Source of the DNA: Halobacteroidaceae bacterium
GTDB lineage: Bacteria > Bacillota > Halanaerobiia > B1SED10-174
Assembly: GCA_003554145.1 (NCBI GenBank)
Contig: PWFS01000062.1
Span: forward strand, 1 to 51,796
Reading direction: 5' to 3'
Length of the DNA: 51,796 bases
The position numbers and the translations under genes were made by a program. Under the pieces are notes generated by a model. It saw nothing but the letters and a program-made list of their open reading frames with translations, had not been told where the DNA came from and did not search any database. Positions within the stretch are counted from its first letter, which is position 1, and each line of letters starts with the position of its first letter. Shown here in pieces: positions 1,231 to 50,837 of the stretch.

Positions 1231-2619
1231 GTGGAAGATTTGACTCCCCGCCAGACAGTGAATGAACTGGATAAATATATTATCGGGCAGGAACAGGCCA
1301 AAAAAGCGGTGGCCATTGCCCTGCGTAACAGGTACCGGCGGCGTCTTTTGGAAGATGAACTGCGGGATGAAATCCTACCTAAAAATATCCTGATGATTGG
1401 CCCTACCGGGGTGGGAAAAACGGAAATTGCCCGCCGCCTGGCTCGCCTGGTTAAAGCCCCCTTTATTAAAGTGGAGGTCAGCAAATTTACTGAAGTAGGT
1501 TATGTGGGCCGGGATGTGGAATCAATGATTCGTGATCTCCTGGAAACAGCCATCCAAATGGAAAAACAGGAAAAAATAAGAGAAGTAGAGGATAAAGCAG
1601 AGGAACTGGCTGAAGAACGCTTGATGGATTATTTGATGCCAGGACGAAAGAAGTCCAGTAACCCCCTGAATATGTTTTTGAGTTCTTCAGGCCGGGAAGA
1701 AGAAGGAAATGGAGAGGATAATGAAGCCAGGGAAAGAATGAAGTCCAGGCGGGAACGATTGCTGGAAAAACTTCGTTCTGGGGAACTGGAGGAGCCCCCC
1801 ATTGAAATTGAAGTGGAGGCCAGTCATTCCCCCATGCTGGAAATCTTTTCTGGGGCTGGAGTAGAAGAGATGGGCATTAACATGCAGGATCTTTTTGGGG
1901 GGATGTTTCCCCGGAAAAAGAAAAAAAGAAGGGTAAACATCGGGCAGGCCAGAGAAATCCTCAAGCAGCAGGAAGCCCAAAAACTGATTGATATGGATGA
2001 GGTTACTGAAACCGCCCGGGAAAGAGTTCAGGAGAGCGGAATTATCTTCCTGGATGAAATTGATAAAATTACTGGCAAAGATGAAAGTCATGGTCCCGAT
2101 GTATCCCGGGAGGGAGTACAGAGGGATATACTGCCCGTTGTGGAAGGCTCAACGGTAATGACCAAACATGGTCCGGTCAATACTGATCACATCTTATTTA
2201 TAGCTGCCGGGGCTTTTCACATGGCTAAACCTTCCGATTTAATTCCCGAACTGCAGGGGCGCTTCCCCATCAGGGTCGAATTATCCAGTCTCAGTGAGGC
2301 CAATTTCCGGGAAATTTTAACTGAACCTCAGAATGCTTTGATTAAACAGTACGTTGCCCTGCTCCAGGCGGAGGAAGTTGAAATTGAATTTTCGGATGAA
2401 GGAATTGCCCAGCTGGCCCGAATTGCCTTCCTGGCCAATGAACAGATGGAAAATATAGGAGCTCGGCGTCTGCATACCGTTCTGGAGAAATTGCTGGAGG
2501 AAATTTCTTTTGCCGGTCCCGAACTCAAGGGTCAGAAAATAATCATTGATGATGATTTTGTTAAAGATCAGCTGGAGGGGATTATAAAGGATAAAGACCT
2601 TAGCCGATATATTCTTTAA
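1231..2619 (+). CDS. hslU: ATP-dependent protease ATPase subunit HslU/ClpY
   Basis: Walker [21 protein letters not shown], Walker [11 protein letters not shown]-terminal DLSRYIL; GTG at 1231 fits SD AAGGAGGT better than TTG at 1225. Confidence 0.97.
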
Positions 2620-2736
2620 CTGGATAATTTTTGAGCAGACTCTACTAATTTGGGGGATGATTTTTCTCCGTTTAATCTGGATTGAAAAAATAAAAACACC
2701 TTTTTAAGGGTATTTGTTAAAAGGAGGCTGAAAACA

Positions 2737-3519
2737 ATGGAAAACCTATTGCAGAAAACCCGGCAGTTAAACAATCTTTTGCTGGGGGGAGCAGGAAAGG
2801 CAGTTAGTTTTAAAGAAATGGCCAGTGTTTTGAGTGAAGCCATGGATGCCAATGTTTATGTAATCAGCAAAAAAGGGAAAGTCCTGGGCCATCAACTCCT
2901 GGATCAATTTGAATGTGAAAAAATGATGGAAGAAGTGCTGGAAAAAAAACAATTTCCTGCAGATTTTAATGAAAAATTGTTGGGAATAAATGAAACCCGG
3001 GCTAACATCCAGCAGGAAGATGGTAAGTGTGTTTTTGAATTTCAGGGAGACTGTATTTTTACAACCAAGGTAACAACGGTAGTTCCGGTTAAAGGTGCCG
3101 GGGCTCGATTGGGCACCCTTATCCTGGCCAGATTCAGAAACAATTTTGAGGCAGGAGATTTAATTCTGGCCGAATATGCTGCTGCAGTAGTTGGCATGGA
3201 AATACTGCGATCCCGCAGTGAAAAAATGGAGGAAAAAGCCCGGCGTAAGGCCGCAGTACAGATGGCTTTGGACAGCCTTTCTTTTTCGGAAATGGAAGCG
3301 GTGGAGCATATTTTTGCGGAACTGGATCAAAAAGAAGGTTTGATTGTGGCCAGCAAAATTGCCGATGGAGCTGGAATTACCCGGTCAGTAATTGTTAATG
3401 CCCTGCGAAAATTTGAAAGTGCCGGGGTTATCGAGTCCCGGTCCCTGGGAATGAAAGGAACCTACATTAAAGTTTTAAATGAGTTTTTGCTGGAGGAAAT
3501 TGAAAAGATTGATCTTTAG
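2737..3519 (+). CDS. codY: GTP/branched-chain amino acid-sensing regulator CodY
   Basis: C-terminal wHTH ASKIADGAGITRSVIVNALRKFESAGVIESRSLGMKGT; N-terminal GAF-like domain; follows hslU. Confidence 0.98.
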   Translation: MENLLQKTRQLNNLLLGGAGKAVSFKEMASVLSEAMDANVYVISKKGKVLGHQLLDQFECEKMMEEVLEKKQFPADFNEKLLGINETRANIQQEDGKCVFEFQGDCIFTTKVTTVVPVKGAGARLGTLILARFRNNFEAGDLILAEYAAAVVGMEILRSRSEKMEEKARRKAAVQMALDSLSFSEMEAVEHIFAELDQKEGLIVASKIADGAGITRSVIVNALRKFESAGVIESRSLGMKGTYIKVLNEFLLEEIEKIDL

Positions 3520-3544
3520 ATATAAAGAGGAAGGAGCAATTTAA

Positions 3545-4189
3545 ATGGTCAATCCAATAGACAAGTTGACTCCTTTTCAAATTGATGCCCTGCGAGAGCT
3601 TGGGAATATTGGGGCGGGTAATACCGCTACCGCTCTGGCCCAGTTTCTGGAAAGAGAAATCCACATGGAAGTCCCTGCTGCTCGCATCCTGCCCCTGGAG
3701 GAAGTGCCCCAGATTATGGGGGTAGAAGAGCGGCGGGTGGGATGCGTACTGCTGCGGATACTCGGAGAAGCTCCGGGGAAAATGGTTTTTTTGATTGAAG
3801 AAGAGTGCCTGCGCCGGTTGTTAACCCTGGTTTTTGGGGAAGAACCTGATGACCTGGAGGGGGAACTGGAAAGGTCTGCCCTCCAGGAAATAGCGAATAT
3901 TCTCTCGGGCTCTTTTCTTAACTCTATTAATAAGATGACCGGTTTAAGTTGCGTACAGTCATTACCCAATTATGCCATGGATATGGCCGAGGCCATCCTT
4001 AGTTCAATTGCTGCTTATCAAGGGCAGTTTGGAGATCACGTTTTATTCCTGGAAACTTCTTTTTCTGAAGGCGATAATCAAATTTTTAGCAAGTTTTTTC
4101 TTATTCCCGAACCAGGAAGTCTGGAGCAGATCCTGGAAGCAATTGGAGCTGAATCTGATGAGCAAGATAATTCCGGTCCGAATGGGTGA
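3545..4189 (+). CDS. cheC: CheY-P phosphatase CheC
   Basis: Two intact phosphatase motifs DALRELGNIGAG and SALQEIANILSG; paired with cheD. Confidence 0.93.
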   Translation: MVNPIDKLTPFQIDALRELGNIGAGNTATALAQFLEREIHMEVPAARILPLEEVPQIMGVEERRVGCVLLRILGEAPGKMVFLIEEECLRRLLTLVFGEEPDDLEGELERSALQEIANILSGSFLNSINKMTGLSCVQSLPNYAMDMAEAILSSIAAYQGQFGDHVLFLETSFSEGDNQIFSKFFLIPEPGSLEQILEAIGAESDEQDNSGPNG

Positions 4190-4646
4190 ATTAAAAATAG
4201 ATAAAAAACCACAAAAACTGGGGTGTAATGGCCTGGGTTCCTGTATTGGCCTGATAATTTATGATGAGTTCAGGAAAATAGGGGGGCTGGCCCATATAAT
4301 ATTGCCCACAGGAAGAAAAAACGGAAATAATGAACAGAAACCAGGGAAATATGCGGACCTGGCTATTCCCCATTTAATTGAAGAACTGGGGTCAGCGGGA
4401 GCCCATCCACGCCGTTTATGGGCAAAAATGGCCGGGGGAGCCCACATGTTTTCCCTGGAATCAGATAATGATATCAGCCGCATAGGAGAACGCAATATTG
4501 AAGCAGTTCGGGAGATATTAAAACAGTACAAAATACCGGTAAAAGCCATGGATGTGGGAGGGAAATCCGGAAGAACAATTGTTTTTTATCTCAGCTCGGG
4601 AGAGTTAAAAATTAAAACCTTTCAAAAAGGTGAGAAAACATTATAA
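4158..4646 (+). CDS. cheD: Chemoreceptor glutamine deamidase CheD
   Basis: GLGSCIG (catalytic Cys), GGLAHIILP (His), KYAD, AKMAGGAHMF, IGERN; likely start ATG 4158 (MSKIIPVRMGE), overlapping the cheC end. Confidence 0.94.
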   Translation: MSKIIPVRMGELKIDKKPQKLGCNGLGSCIGLIIYDEFRKIGGLAHIILPTGRKNGNNEQKPGKYADLAIPHLIEELGSAGAHPRRLWAKMAGGAHMFSLESDNDISRIGERNIEAVREILKQYKIPVKAMDVGGKSGRTIVFYLSSGELKIKTFQKGEKTL

Positions 4647-4660
4647 AGGTTACCGGGCTA

Positions 4661-4689
4661 TTGATAAATAAGGGCTGCTGTGGTATACT
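4661..4689 (+). promoter_or_regulatory. sigmaA promoter of rpsB-tsf
   Basis: TTGATA (4661-4666), 17 bp spacer, TATACT (4684-4689) with extended -10 TG. Confidence 0.75.
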
Positions 4690-4702
4690 ACCTAAGGGTT
4701 AA

Positions 4703-4790
4703 AAACACATGATCCGCAACTCCAGGGGTGGTGCCCGCCAGGGTTCCCCGGGATGGGGATGACCGGATCAGAGGAAAAACCGAGAGGAGG
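4703..4790 (+). ncRNA. rpsB 5' leader (S2 autoregulatory / t44-like structure)
   Basis: ACAC start, TGATCCG (4710-4716) pairs with CGGATCA (4764-4770) enclosing GGGGTGGTGCCC, followed by GAGG; layout resembles known rpsB leaders. Confidence 0.6.
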
Positions 4791-4801
4791 AAATTTATCA
4801 A

Positions 4802-5605
4802 ATGGCAGTGGTTACAATGAAACAGCTGCTGGAATCGGGTGTTCACTTCGGACATCAGACCCGGCGGTGGAATCCCAAGATGAAACCCTATATTTTTACC
4901 GAGCGTAACGGGATATACATCGTCGATCTGCAGCAAACGGTTAAAATGGTTGAGGTGGCCCATAATTTTGTGCGGGACCTGGCCATGGAGGGTAAGGAAG
5001 TTCTTTTCGTGGGAACCAAGAAGCAAGCCCAGGAAACAGTAAAAAAAGAAGCGGAAAGATGTGGCATGCCCTATGTAAATCAGCGCTGGCTGGGGGGGAT
5101 GCTGACCAACTTTGCCACAATAAGTAAACGGATCCGTCGGCTGGAGGAACTGGAAAAAATGGATGAGGAGGGACTGTTTGAAGTCCTCCCTAAGAAAGAA
5201 GTAATTCAACTGCAAAAAGAAAAAGAACGCCTGAACCGTTTCCTGGGAGGAATTCGCCACATGAAAAGGTTACCCCATGCGGTTTACGTGGTGGACCCCC
5301 GCAAGGAAAGTATTGCAGTTGCTGAAGCAAATAAGCTGGGAATCCCGGTGGTTGCAATTGTTGACACTAACTGTGACCCCGATGTAATTGATTATATTAT
5401 TCCGGGTAATGATGATGCTATTCGAGCAGTTAAGCTCTTAACTGGAGTAATGGCTGATGCTGTATTAGAGGGTAATCAAGGGCGGGAAGTTCAAATGCCC
5501 GAAACCGATGAAGAAGTAGAAGCCGGAGAAGAGAGCTCTGTGGAGGGTGAAAAGGACCTGGAAGAGTTAAAAAAAGAAACTAATGAACAGGAAAAAGCTG
5601 AATAA
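4802..5605 (+). CDS. rpsB: 30S ribosomal protein S2
   Basis: [33 protein letters not shown]. Confidence 0.99.
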
Positions 5606-47340: not shown

Positions 47341-47504
47341 AAAAGGTGAGGAATAAAAGTTTGAAAAAGGGAGGGAGCTTACTAAGGCCCGAGGTTTGAT
47401 CATTAAAGATTTTGATACTGTTTTTAAAACGGAAAAATAAACTGGGAAATCGGCGGATTTTTCTCTTTCTTATTTTTAATTTCCAACAAAAAAGGGGGCT
47501 AAAA

Positions 47505-48008
47505 ATGAAAAAAGAAATGGTTATAGTCGTTCTGATCCTGATCTTCTTGGTTTCCTTATCTTCAGCAGCGGAAGCCAGGTTTTATATTGGGGGTATGTAT
47601 GCCCGGCAACTGGAACATGATGCTCCGGGCACCAGCTGGCTGGGGATAACCCTTCGTTCTCTGGGAAATGGTCTTTTTGGCTCCGACCTTGATTTCCGCT
47701 TTCATTCTGGGGATTATATGGGAGAAGACTATTTTATCTTAAGAATCAATCCCTTTCTCCATTTAAATTTAAAACTGGGACAATTAAACTTATATGGAGG
47801 TATCAGTCCCTTTACAGTTCAGTACCTATCCTATGGCGAAGGGGAATGGGAGTTTGATTTTCACCTTTTTTATGCAAAAGCTGGCGCCCAATACGATTTT
47901 GGTCCACTGGGAGTTTTTGCCCATGGGCTCAATCGTCTGGAACTTGATGATATTGAGGGGTCTTTACGGCAAATGGGGCTGGAATTTGGTGCGGCCTTTG
48001 GATTTTAA
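47505..48008 (+). CDS. Putative small outer-membrane beta-barrel protein
   Basis: Sec signal peptide ending AEA, alternating hydrophobic/polar segments rich in Gly and aromatics, C-terminal GLEFGAAFGF ending in Phe; start ATG 47505. Confidence 0.65.
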   Translation: MKKEMVIVVLILIFLVSLSSAAEARFYIGGMYARQLEHDAPGTSWLGITLRSLGNGLFGSDLDFRFHSGDYMGEDYFILRINPFLHLNLKLGQLNLYGGISPFTVQYLSYGEGEWEFDFHLFYAKAGAQYDFGPLGVFAHGLNRLELDDIEGSLRQMGLEFGAAFGF

Positions 48009-48095
48009 GAATTAGCCGGGGAAATAGTTTACAAAGTAAGAATTCCCCCTGGTATTTATCTATTTGGGGCTATGGACACAACAGGAGGGGTGGAA

Positions 48096-48485
48096 TTGGC
48101 CAAAAAGGATTTTAAAATTCTGTATTGTGATGATTCTTTGCTGGTTCGTAAACAGCTAAAGGAAATTTTGAACCAGGAGGGCTACACAAACCTTATAGAA
48201 GCCGCAGATGGTGAAGAAGTCGTAAAGAAGTACCAAAGCGAAAACCCTGATCTTGTTTTCTGTGATATTGTTATGCCTCGTCTGGATGGGTTGGAAGCTT
48301 TAAACAGGATTAAAGCCCGGGATCAGTCTGCCCGGATAGTAATGATTTCAACATCGGGGACCAGAGCTAACCTGATCAGGGCCCTGGATGAGGGAGCGGT
48401 GGATTTTGTGCAAAAACCCTTAAATCCGGAAAGGGTAAAAAAAATTGTTGCTCGGGAAATCAAAGGAGGCAGGGGCCTTGTTTAG
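48096..48485 (+). CDS. Single-domain CheY-like response regulator
   Basis: CDDS, phosphoacceptor DIVMP, MIST, QKP; no output domain; TTG 48096 after AGGAGG. Confidence 0.9.
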   Translation: MAKKDFKILYCDDSLLVRKQLKEILNQEGYTNLIEAADGEEVVKKYQSENPDLVFCDIVMPRLDGLEALNRIKARDQSARIVMISTSGTRANLIRALDEGAVDFVQKPLNPERVKKIVAREIKGGRGLV

Positions 48486-49341
48486 TCAATACCTGGGGAG
48501 CTATCTTTTGCGCAGGGAATTAATTTCTGCGGAAGAGCTGGGCTCATTATTAAAAAAGGAAAAAGAGCACCGAATAAAGCTGGGAGTTCTGGCCATTGAC
48601 CGGGGCTATATGACTGTAGATCAGGTTGAGGAGATCCATGCCCAGCAGAAAAAAATTGATCGCAGATTCGGAGAACTGGCAATAGATAAGGGTTATCTTA
48701 CTTCTTCAGCCCTGGAAAAATTGTTAACTGAACAGAAGGAGGCCCATGTTTCCCTGAGTGAGATTCTGTTGGATGAAGGATATTTTTCCCTGGCAGAAAT
48801 AGAAAAAATTGTTCGGGAGTACAAAGAGGATGCGGGCATATCTGATAGAGATATCAGAAGTTTACAGGAAGGCGATGTAGCAATTGCTGTTGATAGGTTA
48901 GTGGAGTTTAATAAAGCAGATGAGTTTTTTCGAAATTATGTCATCCTGTTTTTACGGAATTTAATCCGATTTGTTGACCCTCGCTCCCGAATTTTGAGTT
49001 CCCAGGAAAAAATAGAGATCCCCAAGGGGCTTGTTATTGAACAGGCAATCCGGGGAGAAGTTGATATTAATACTGCTGTAATGATTGATAGCAGGGATGC
49101 GGGTGAAATAGCTTCTCGTTTTAGCCGCCGGGATATTTCTTCTCCCGATCCCCTGATTTCGGAAACACTTAAAGAGCTTTTGAACCTACATAACGGGTTG
49201 TTTGCGGTTAATCTATCCAACCAAGGTGTTGAAGTTAATCTTAACCCTCCCGAGATTGCCCAGCAGGCCCCCTATAAATTTAGTGAGGAAATTGAGTTTC
49301 GAACCTCGGTGGGGGATATTAAGTTATTCCTTGGAAGCTGA
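48478..49341 (+). CDS. Four MshEN-like repeats fused to a CheX/CheC-like phosphatase domain
   Basis: 24-aa repeats with 5-aa linkers (e.g. RFGELAIDKGYLTSSALEKLLTEQ); C-terminal ELLN-x20-PP; TTG 48478 overlaps the receiver gene. Confidence 0.7.
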   Translation: MFSQYLGSYLLRRELISAEELGSLLKKEKEHRIKLGVLAIDRGYMTVDQVEEIHAQQKKIDRRFGELAIDKGYLTSSALEKLLTEQKEAHVSLSEILLDEGYFSLAEIEKIVREYKEDAGISDRDIRSLQEGDVAIAVDRLVEFNKADEFFRNYVILFLRNLIRFVDPRSRILSSQEKIEIPKGLVIEQAIRGEVDINTAVMIDSRDAGEIASRFSRRDISSPDPLISETLKELLNLHNGLFAVNLSNQGVEVNLNPPEIAQQAPYKFSEEIEFRTSVGDIKLFLGS

Positions 49342-49378: not shown

Positions 49379-49409
49379 AAAAAAGCGGGGTTAAAACCCC
49401 GCTTATTTT
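49379..49409. terminator. Bidirectional terminator between the CheX-like gene and tRNA-Thr
   Basis: A-tract, AAGCGGGGTT-aa-AACCCCGCTT, then ATTTT; lies between convergent genes. Confidence 0.75.
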
Positions 49410-49411
49410 CA

Positions 49412-49487
49412 TGGAGCTGGCGACCGGATTCGAACCGGTTACCTGGTGATTACAAGTCACCTGCTCTACCGTTTGAGCTACGCCAGC
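49412..49487 (-). tRNA. tRNA-Thr (anticodon UGU), CCA encoded
   Basis: Reverse complement GCTGGCGTAGCTCAAACGGTAGAGCAGGTGACTTGTAATCACCAGGTAACCGGTTCGAATCCGGTCGCCAGCTCCA, 76 nt, full cloverleaf. Confidence 0.98.
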
Positions 49488-49559: not shown

Positions 49560-50837
49560 TCAAAAGGAAGGGAGAAAAAGGGTAACAATTTTCCCACCCC
49601 TATTGGTAACGTGTAGTAAATTGGGGTCATCATCGGAAGAAATGCTGGTAATTCTGCTCCGAACTGCAAGAGACCTTTTACCCAGAACCTCACCGCTATC
49701 TTTACAGAGAATAAAAACACTGCCATCATGGGTTCCAAAGTAGAGGTGATCTTCAAAGAAAGCAAAAGCAGAGGTCGGAGTATAAAGGGGTCTTTCCCAG
49801 GCTTTATCTCCCGTTTCTAAGTCAAAAGCGGTCATAACCCCCTGATTGTCACCCCAGACTAAAAGTTGGGAGGTCAGGAACAGATTGTTGAGGCCGGGAA
49901 CATCAAAACCATCCCAGAGCTCAGGACTTCCACTTTCCTTATCCCATAACAGTAGAGTATTTTCTTTTCCCACGGCTGCAAGCTTATTGCGGTTCTGAGC
50001 CACATCCATTATTTCCCCAATATCAAAGCCCTCAATCAGGGAAACTTCCCCGTCAGCAAGGTCAATAGCCAGCAGGTCTCCTTTTCGGGAGAGAACTACT
50101 GCTTCTCCCTCTCCCGAAAATAGGCTGCCACGAATCAGTTCCCTTTGGGGGTCGCTTTCCCAGAGTATATCACCTTCATAATCCAGGGCAATTAACTGGC
50201 TGCGGAAGGAAATTCCCAAAAGGCCTTGATCGGTAGCAAGCAGTTCGATCAGGCGCTCGGGAATAGAGGCTTCCCAGACAATGTTTCCTTCAGCCTGATC
50301 CAGGGCCAGAACGGGTCCATAGAATGAAGGAATAAACACCCTGTCCTCAGCAGTTACCGGCTGATAAAGAAAGGTTTCATTCTCTGCCTGAGTTTCCCAG
50401 ACTTTATCCTTACTTTTTTTATCAATTGCAAAAATACGCCCGTCGGTAGTTGGCAGATAAAGGTGTTCTTCGTGGGAAAAGCTCCCACCGGAGGTGGTAG
50501 CAATAACTTCAAAGTGGGGGCCTATTTCAATATCCTTATCCGAGAGATAGACAATAAGCTGGCGCTCACTCCCGGGATTAAACTGAAACAACCTGCTGTA
50601 GGTTTCATAACCTTCTTTTCCAACACTAACTTCTCTTAGACCCAGCTGGACTCCGGTAATCCGGTCGGGAGAGGTTCCTACCTCGCCACCGTCTATAAAA
50701 ATACGGGCTTCTTCTGGATAGGTGGTTACTTCCAGAACTCCCTGGGAAGCGGTAGCCGAATAATAAACATATCCGGCCGCACCCGCAATTACCAGGAGTA
50801 ATAACAACAACGCCCAGTGAATATTTGTCCGGCTAAT
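49560..50837 (-). CDS. Membrane-anchored PEGA domain plus PQQ/BamB-like beta-propeller protein
   Basis: N-terminal TM; PEGA GVLEVTTYPEEARIFIDG..VGTSP...VGKEGY; propeller blades DGRIFAIDKKSKDKVW, VLALDQAEGNIVW, MTAFDLETGDKAW; start uncertain (TTG 50810 or ATT 50837). Confidence 0.85.
   Translation of the reverse strand: MSRTNIHWALLLLLLVIAGAAGYVYYSATASQGVLEVTTYPEEARIFIDGGEVGTSPDRITGVQLGLREVSVGKEGYETYSRLFQFNPGSERQLIVYLSDKDIEIGPHFEVIATTSGGSFSHEEHLYLPTTDGRIFAIDKKSKDKVWETQAENETFLYQPVTAEDRVFIPSFYGPVLALDQAEGNIVWEASIPERLIELLATDQGLLGISFRSQLIALDYEGDILWESDPQRELIRGSLFSGEGEAVVLSRKGDLLAIDLADGEVSLIEGFDIGEIMDVAQNRNKLAAVGKENTLLLWDKESGSPELWDGFDVPGLNNLFLTSQLLVWGDNQGVMTAFDLETGDKAWERPLYTPTSAFAFFEDHLYFGTHDGSVFILCKDSGEVLGKRSLAVRSRITSISSDDDPNLLHVTNRGGKIVTLFLPSF

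Follow-up and report, generated by a model that had tools for sequence, protein, structure and literature searches.

The locus and its genes

The stretch of DNA analysed here, called the window, comprises 51,796 nucleotides (nt) from a Halobacteroidaceae bacterium (GenBank assembly GCA_003554145.1, contig PWFS01000062.1, positions 1 to 51,796 of the forward strand). Two overlapping genes in it encode a CheY-like receiver and a fusion protein of 287 amino acids (aa), in which four tandem motifs of the MshEN type, known from receptors for cyclic diguanosine monophosphate (c-di-GMP), precede a domain with the fold of the phosphatase CheX. The pair may form a small signalling module in which c-di-GMP tunes the dephosphorylation of the receiver. 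Its features are the following.

48096..48485, + strand: stand-alone CheY-like receiver gene, 129 aa from the TTG at 48096 (137 aa if the ATG at 48072 is the start)
48478..49341, + strand: fusion protein gene, 287 aa, with four MshEN-type motifs, a two-helix linker and a CheX-type domain
48490..48561, + strand: motif 1 of the fusion protein, residues 5-28; degenerate, with Tyr at position 1 and, in the window protein, Glu at positions 10 and 24
48577..48738, + strand: motifs 2 and 3, residues 34-57 and 63-86, joined by a 5-aa spacer with D61; predicted c-di-GMP pocket
48751..48822, + strand: motif 4, residues 92-115; degenerate, with Ser at positions 1 and 3 and Tyr at position 24
48823..48909, + strand: conserved linker, about residues 116-144, with helices at 123-130 and 134-141 in the model and a conserved YK..S..Q.GD in the family alignment
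48910..49338, + strand: CheX-type domain, about residues 145-287, with E233-x2-N236-x3-G240 and P257-P258

The overlap that the original prediction described is 8 nt long, the fusion gene starting at the TTG at 48478 and the receiver gene ending with the TAG at 48483-48485. Both genes are preceded by a Shine-Dalgarno-like AGGAGG. For the receiver this lies 7 nt upstream of the TTG at 48096, a start with which the N-termini of homologues agree (the ATG at 48072 being the alternative), and the TTG of the fusion gene lies 7 nt downstream of AAAGGAGG.

The CheX-type domain

For the C-terminal domain, the top Foldseek matches of the model are CheX and CheC-like chains alone (1squ_B with E 1.3e-7 and TM-score 0.71; 6vpw_A with TM-score 0.74). 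In VIA-align the best match, with Z 16.7 and a root-mean-square deviation (rmsd) of 2.7 Å over 139 residues, is 3hzh_B, the CheX of the Borrelia CheX-CheY3-BeF3 complex, and CheX of Thermotoga maritima (1squ_A) follows with Z 16.6. CheX structures score between Z 13.8 and 16.7, while CheC, FliY and FliM are far lower at Z 7.5-9.5 (FliM middle domains 7.5-8.9). The predicted local distance difference test score (pLDDT) of the model is mostly 83-96 in this domain, with two 10-residue blocks at 64 and 73. At the level of profiles, all 26 of the family C-terminal domains match Pfam CheX PF13690 at E<=0.01, the best at 5.8e-7, and a profile search of the PDB gave E values of 0.0078-0.22 to CheC and CheX chains. 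The comparison with CheX profiles proposed in the original prediction thus has a mixed outcome: the fold (Z 16.7) and the family domains (26/26) agree with it, and the window protein itself stays under the Pfam cut-off.

The original prediction had also pointed to an ELLN-x20-PP at the end of the protein and had read it as a phosphatase site of the CheC/CheX/FliY type. These residues are E233, N236, P257 and P258, and in HMMER alignments E233-x2-N236 and P257-P258 fall column for column on the E..N..PP of 1squ, 1xko and 3hzh_B, that is, of T. maritima and Borrelia CheX; the x20 spacing between E..N and PP is the same as in T. maritima CheX. Conservation was counted in 256 aligned sequences (the window protein and 255 of 268 relatives, those of 270-325 aa, the 13 shorter or longer ones being omitted). 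Here, E233 is kept in 238 (93%; Asp in 14), N236 in 253 (99%), G240 in 253 (99%) and P257 in 226 (88%), and further residues of the domain, Y154, N161, R164, F165 and Q189, are invariants specific to the family. The positions of E233, N236 and P257 are presumably those of the catalytic residues of CheX. In CheX of Vibrio cholerae N94, the equivalent of N236, is essential, according to the available portion of the report (PMC12799141). Judged by sequence and model, the C-terminal domain is a CheX fold with the conserved catalytic Glu and Asn, and phosphatase activity is predicted for it.

The MshEN-type repeats

The four 24-aa repeats of the N-terminal head and their 5-aa spacers (residues 29-33, 58-62 and 87-91) had been noticed from the letters of the sequence, and hidden Markov model (HMM) searches bear them out. 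The NCBIfam model NF053729 ('cyclic di-GMP-binding domain, MshE-related', 53 positions) matches the window protein in two stretches (E 3.4e-18; 65.2 bits, the cut-off being 38), so that the comparison with an MshEN profile proposed with the original prediction is positive, and each of the three pairs of adjacent motifs scores (residues 1-60 with 40.7 bits, 30-90 with 38.2 and 59-120 with 36.7). A profile built from 25 family members finds PilF 6f8l in the PDB at E 2.8e-12 and V. cholerae MshE 5htl at E 4.7e-7; residues 31-101 align to residues 6-77 of MshE, and the PilF alignment covers motifs 3 and 4. Because the NF053729 score is above its cut-off and the profile matches PilF and MshE, the four motifs are best taken as genuine MshEN-type repeats. 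The label '4x MshEN' has to be corrected, since four motifs make at most two MshEN_N units.

The motifs differ strongly in how well they keep the residues that contact the nucleotide. For this comparison, key positions were checked against the strict and the relaxed motif as printed in the available part of Wang et al. 2016 (PMC5013675), the contact residues being a basic position 1, Gly3, Gly10, hydrophobic positions 17 and 21, and Gln24. In the 256 sequences, position 1 of motif 1 is never basic (0/256) and has Y/F/L/I instead (Tyr 63%, Phe 21%); Gly10 of this motif is found in 52% and Gln24 in 49%. In motif 4, position 1 conforms to the relaxed motif in 5% and position 3 is Gly in 39%, and position 24 is Tyr (80%) or Phe (17%). 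The inner motifs 2 and 3 have K/R at position 1 in 96% and 91%, Gly3 in 98% and 98%, Gly10 in 90% and 92%, and Gln24 in 100% and 98%. In the window protein motif 3 fits the contact signature fully and motif 2 at all positions but 21, which is His. This residue (residue 54, 48637-48639) is near-invariant and specific to the family, with His in 186 of 256 sequences (72%) and Asn in 41 (16%). Taken as pairs, 2+3 passes the contact signature, while 1+2 and 3+4 are half-degenerate.

Two AlphaFold2 models were compared with known structures, one of the full protein (pLDDT 81.4) and one of residues 1-125 alone (pLDDT 87.5). In each of them, residues 32/33-89 (motifs 2 and 3) are the segment to which all top-ranked chains of MshEN type align; the slight exception, in the model of residues 1-125, is 8pe0_A, which aligns at residues 29-88 with an rmsd of 2.3 Å. 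Over this segment the match to c-di-GMP-bound MshE (5htl_B) has Z 11.5-11.7 and an rmsd of 1.5 Å over 57-58 residues with 30-31% identity, and matches to liganded PilF GSPII-B have Z 10.2-11.3 and rmsd 0.8-2.3 Å across the two models. Given the degeneracy of motifs 1 and 4, and given that the fit to liganded MshE and PilF is confined to motifs 2 and 3 in either model, one nucleotide site is likelier than two. By sequence and model, a single canonical c-di-GMP pocket formed by motifs 2 and 3, flanked by degenerate hairpins, is thus the more likely arrangement, and two half-degenerate sites made of the pairs 1+2 and 3+4 may be the alternative.

Some other matches were set aside. Sub-threshold Pfam matches to DUF4388 (22.2 bits), FumaraseC_C (21.3 bits) and EF-hand_like, as well as structural matches of the head model to fumarase/aspartase C-terminal domains at Z of about 7, are taken to reflect a general helical likeness and not function. 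Weak NCBIfam matches to EpsG, NfrB and PRK15489 are due to the MshEN-type segments that these proteins have themselves.

The partner receiver

The product of 48096..48485 is a receiver domain (Pfam PF00072, E 3.1e-30), and its top NCBIfam models are CheY and CheB receivers. The acidic pocket and active site consist of D12, D13, D57, S85 and K107, all invariant in the 26 partner receivers compared, and F104 stands at the aromatic switch position. The full set of positions invariant in these 26 sequences is C11, D12, D13, S14, R18, D57, P61, S85, G88, T89, F104, Q106, K107 and P108, two of which, S14 and R18, lie at the start of helix 1 and adjoin the active site. With a mean column identity of 56%, the partner receivers form a tight subfamily whose signature reads CDDS...R, DIVMP, SSxGT and DFIQKP. 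The closest paralogues in the genome are two CheYs encoded beside CheA on contig C27 (E 4e-24 and 4e-20), and it is at exactly the signature positions that these differ (VDDA, DITMP, SAMGQ and FIVKP). As far as sequence can tell, the partner receivers are a distinct subfamily, separate from the two ordinary CheYs of this contig.

Linkage and distribution of the pair

At least 528 stretches of DNA in species-representative genomes hold related loci, and the best 80 of them, all from Bacillota, were analysed. They come from Sporomusa, Selenomonadaceae, many Bacillaceae, Paenibacillus, Clostridia, Oscillospiraceae, Ruminococcus and Desulforudis. The survey of gene-pair conservation that had been suggested as a check gave a uniform answer: a receiver gene lies immediately upstream of the fusion gene on the same strand in 80/80 loci. 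The distance between the two genes is -8 to +17 nt in 78 of the 80, and in 28 loci the overlap is the identical 8 nt. No other neighbour of the pair is conserved across lineages in these 80 loci. The relatives of the fusion protein itself number 535 at E<=1e-3, with 131 representatives of 50%-identity clusters at E<=1e-30. Database labels of some of them are CheX or, misleadingly, phage N4 adsorption protein B.

Variants of the fusion protein bear on how the module is put together. In two short forms (L098, 2084-3098, genome G030; L099, 1668-2718, genome G117) the same receiver subfamily overlaps a CheX-like protein of 212-215 aa, in which the EELLN or EEFIN helix is present and MshEN motifs 1-3 are absent. 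Because these short forms keep the pair without motifs 1-3, the receiver and the CheX domain form the core of the module, with the MshEN head as an added input. A further variant, P0235, is a singleton of 435 aa on one metagenome contig of 3.9 kb, in which MshEN-CheX is followed by a C-terminal receiver (residues 317-427, PF00072 E 1.9e-24). This receiver is of another subtype than the partner receivers. As a singleton, the fusion could be an artefact of assembly or gene calling, and it is no more than suggestive. Fused forms longer than 503 aa were not found at E<=1e-10, which is weak evidence. In P0236 the motifs are followed by a NIF3 domain.

Among 301 genomes sampled across the phylum, 13 hold the family. 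Proteins with a GGDEF domain are present in all 10 full-length holders tested.

In some lineages the pair has a richer setting. A methyl-accepting chemotaxis protein (MCP; 4HB-HAMP-MCPsignal) is encoded upstream in 10 loci, the Sporomusa-type ones included, and 8 of these also have a STAS protein on the same strand. In the Sporomusa-type loci (L002-L007, L023, L065 and L066; about 1350-5550 in locus coordinates) the same-strand MCP (4HB_MCP, HAMP, MCPsignal) and a STAS protein of 117 aa precede the pair, and a DUF520 (YajQ-like) gene follows it on the opposite strand. Proteins of the YajQ family have been reported as c-di-GMP binders. It is possible that this MCP/STAS/DUF520 setting is a lineage-specific wiring of the module.

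Surroundings in the window and in the genome

Other features of the window are the following.

49383..49404, no strand assigned: G+C-rich hairpin, with T runs on each strand, that separates the pair from tRNA-Thr; from a consensus scan only, with as many sites as in shuffled sequences
49412-49487, - strand: tRNA-Thr, downstream of the pair
3545-4189, + strand: cheC, with two CheC motifs and a CheX match
3972-4646, + strand: cheD

The hairpin likely marks the end of a two-gene transcript. In the promoter scan no sigma-70-like promoter was found upstream of the receiver gene, and the site counts were no higher than in shuffles. Directly 5' of the receiver gene lies an open reading frame of 198 aa (47412-48008, + strand). 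Its N-terminus includes a hydrophobic stretch, Pfam gives no match at E<=1, and the frame is not kept beside the pair in other genomes. Beyond tRNA-Thr and convergent with the pair, 49560-50810 (- strand) encodes a protein of 416 aa in which a PEGA domain at the N-terminus is combined with a PQQ/BamB-like beta-propeller.

The statement of the original prediction that there is no kinase or receptor in the window holds, in that no match to HATPase_c, CheW or MCPsignal is found on the window's contig (C128). What it had missed is the cheC-cheD pair at 3545-4646 of the same window. Between 2737 and 7599 (+ strand) the gene order is codY, cheC, cheD, rpsB, tsf, pyrH, frr, with only cheC-cheD between codY and rpsB. 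In Bacillus subtilis, the whole fla/che operon is found at this place.

The assembly has 2.1 Mb in 259 contigs and is 94% complete. It encodes CheW and a single CheA, three MCP matches, FliM, and a FliY-like protein; CheA, CheW, CheY and FliM are on contigs C27, C112 and C90, apart from the contig of the window. The genome has 11 receiver open reading frames, and 16 GGDEF matches stand against four MshEN-motif proteins (the window protein included) and one PilZ match. The three other MshEN-motif proteins of this genome (G000) are open frames of 584, 574 and 429 aa, and the listing of GGDEF, MshEN and PilZ matches cites contigs C243, C47, C169 and C192.

A proposed mechanism and its rivals

The reading proposed here is that the fusion protein dephosphorylates a CheY-like receiver of its own and that c-di-GMP tunes this activity; we give the whole an even chance of being right. 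The analysis establishes what the domains are, which residues are conserved, how the genes are linked and what background the genome offers, while the binding of the ligand, the identity of substrate and kinase, the direction of control and the output are inferred. In this mechanism the receiver would be phosphorylated on Asp57, most probably by the single CheA of the genome, because it is an orphan and most closely related to the CheYs encoded next to CheA. The helix with Glu233 and Asn236 would insert into the active site of the receiver and accelerate its dephosphorylation, in the manner of the Borrelia CheX-CheY3 complex. The inner two of the four MshEN-type hairpins would form a pocket resembling the c-di-GMP pocket of MshE and PilF, and binding would be signalled through the conserved two-helix linker, or through dimerisation, to alter phosphatase activity. 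In this way the cellular level of c-di-GMP would determine how long the receiver stays phosphorylated. The receiver may itself act on a target, for instance the flagellar switch, or serve as a tunable phosphate sink that drains the motor-binding CheYs. CheY-P promotes runs in B. subtilis, and if it does so here, activation by c-di-GMP would favour tumbling and settling. A complex prediction with the full-length protein, two c-di-GMP and the receiver as partner had a score of 0.00 and gives no verdict, so that it speaks neither for nor against the pairing; its ligands are not part of the score. The observations behind the original prediction are real and lie well beyond chance. The two-gene switch that it suggested is retained with regard to its MshEN-type repeats, its CheX fold and its phosphorylatable receiver neighbour; its four MshEN domains are reduced to one likely pocket.

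More speculatively, the module may be a self-contained, c-di-GMP-gated phosphate drain on Bacillota chemotaxis, with a decoy CheY fed by CheA, a single pocket in the inner hairpins, and the outer hairpins and linker as a clamp that opens and closes the CheX site. We regard this version as possible rather than probable. If true, c-di-GMP would directly set the CheY-P level and the swimming bias without a PilZ brake or a transcriptional step, and the fusion protein would be the first enzyme in a two-component pathway to be regulated by MshEN.

A number of observations weigh against a c-di-GMP-tuned phosphatase. The window protein is below the thresholds of the curated CheX models, with E 1.9e-4 and 21.9 bits for Pfam PF13690, where the cut-off is 27, and 21.9 bits for the NCBIfam equivalog NF041094, where it is 280. 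In the head, the outer motifs 1 and 4 are degenerate, and the scores of the three motif pairs (40.7, 38.2 and 36.7 bits) do not settle the register of the pocket. The models do match the MshEN_N four-helix unit, but a Z of about 11 is in the range where helical arrangements can be common, and the MshEN_N homology of the head therefore rests on the HMM hits. Residue 54 is His or Asn where MshE has a Leu packing on the guanine; in XpsE, changes of Leu to other residues abolish binding, as stated in the available text of Wang et al. (PMC5013675). As for distribution, the family occurs in none of the 8 genomes sampled from the same class and is thus patchy and a dispensable module. All 13 family holders have CheW, yet so do 243 of the 301 sampled genomes, and this co-occurrence is therefore weak evidence. 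Finally, CheC and a FliY-like protein are already encoded in the genome.

Three rival explanations were weighed. The first is that the MshEN-like head no longer binds c-di-GMP and serves instead as a helical scaffold, in dimerisation or in sensing a different ligand, so that the protein would be a dedicated phosphatase independent of the nucleotide. The failure of motifs 1 and 4 at the relaxed position 1 (0% and 5%), the low share of Gly3 in motif 4 (39%) and the persistence of the receiver partner in short forms without motifs 1-3 speak for it, as does the His or Asn at position 21 of motif 2, comparable changes in XpsE being those that abolish binding in the accessible part of the same paper (Wang et al. 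2016, PMC5013675). However, K/R, Gly, Gly and Gln are conserved at 90-100% in motifs 2 and 3 of 256 diverged sequences, and the two motifs fit liganded MshE and PilF at rmsd 0.8-1.8 Å, with the exception of 8pe0_A (2.3 Å). The Lys at position 1 is also found in PilF GSPII-B, which was solved with c-di-GMP according to the structure titles, NF053729 is over its cut-off, and all holders tested have GGDEF proteins. A head that has lost the nucleotide is thus unlikely.

The second rival accepts the phosphatase and changes its substrate: it would act on the general chemotaxis CheYs, and the co-encoded receiver would be a regulator, decoy or docking partner, comparable to CheD on CheC. CheX of other species acts on the motor CheY. 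The same is described for V. cholerae CheX in the available portion of PMC12799141, and the CheYs encoded beside CheA are no more than distant paralogues of the receiver of the pair (E 4e-24 and 4e-20). The linkage in 80/80 loci with overlapping genes, the receiver signature next to the active site and the persistence of the pair after loss of the head, however, fit an enzyme and its substrate best, and CheC and the FliY-like protein are already present for the ordinary CheYs, which leaves this explanation with a low probability.

That the CheX-like domain is non-catalytic and only binds the phosphorylated receiver, as the FliM middle domain might suggest, which would make the protein a c-di-GMP-dependent adaptor or localisation factor, is very improbable: FliM middle domains do match the model (Z 7.5-8.9) and the window protein is sub-threshold in Pfam CheX, but CheX structures match far better (Z 13.8-16.7), and Glu233, Asn236 and Gly240 occupy the CheX catalytic positions in 93-99% of the 256 sequences, unexpected for a non-catalytic relative.

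If the fusion protein is a c-di-GMP-tuned phosphatase of its receiver, it would add an effector to genomes that have many cyclases (16 GGDEF matches here) and few recognised receptors. The family is small (287 aa with a 129-aa partner), soluble and always encoded with its presumed substrate, so that it is testable with two purified proteins and one nucleotide. It is also widespread in Bacillota, culturable Sporomusa, Cytobacillus, Lysinibacillus, Ureibacillus and Paenibacillus included. The degenerate outer motifs, in addition, bear on how MshEN counts in genome censuses are to be read.

Comparison with known systems

The CheX phosphatases of T. maritima (1squ/1xko), B. burgdorferi (3hzh) and Vibrio (6vpw) have the same fold as the window protein over about 140 residues, with Z 15.6-16.7. 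They share with it the single E-x2-N site followed by x20-PP, the spacing being that of T. maritima CheX. Unlike them, the window protein has an N-terminal head and linker of 145 residues, is encoded with its own receiver and not in a che operon, and carries the family-specific invariants Y154, N161, R164, F165 and Q189; the identity is only 11-20%, and it is below the curated cut-offs.

The MshEN receptors V. cholerae MshE (5htl), Thermus PilF GSPII-B and Escherichia coli NfrB have the same 24-residue motifs and 5-residue spacers. Motifs 2 and 3 of the window protein form the same four-helix unit in the models (30-34% identity) with the signature K/R-h-G...G...Q. It differs from these receptors in that its motifs number four in succession, with degenerate ones at both ends, and in having His or Asn in place of the second Leu of motif 2; it lacks an MshEN_C subdomain as well as an ATPase or glycosyltransferase output.

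The architecture as such is already known, as the original prediction had guessed: MshEN fused to 'phosphatase CheX' is named in the domain survey of Wang et al. (Nat Commun 7:12481; PMC5013675). The available text of that survey is confined to this listing and is silent on the obligatory receiver partner and the degenerate outer motifs. No functional study of an MshEN-CheX fusion was found in the literature searched, which lacked most subscription journals. As far as this literature shows, the function is uncharacterised, and three findings are new: that a receiver partner is obligatory, that the four motifs are unequal, and that short forms exist.

Other routes lead from c-di-GMP to motility. 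CckA, MapZ-CheR1 and YcgR/MotI are inputs of the messenger to chemotaxis or phosphorelays. The Caulobacter Cle CheY-like proteins are a c-di-GMP input to motility and chemotaxis, going by the available account. In all four of these systems the messenger biases motility or switches a two-component enzyme towards its phosphatase state, and none is known to have an MshEN sensor on a phosphatase of the CheC family. Among the known routes (PilZ brakes, Cle, MapZ-CheR1 and PlzC-CheX in trans) there is none in which a fused sensor is known to act directly on a CheY-P phosphatase. The closest parallel in output is PlzC-CheX of V. cholerae (PNAS 2026, PMC12799141), where, in the portion of the paper available, a c-di-GMP receptor protein controls the CheX phosphatase and through it swimming reversals. 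In this case PlzC is a separate PilZ protein that acts in trans, and its effect on CheX is reported to be independent of c-di-GMP binding, whereas in the family described here the sensor is fused to the predicted phosphatase in cis.

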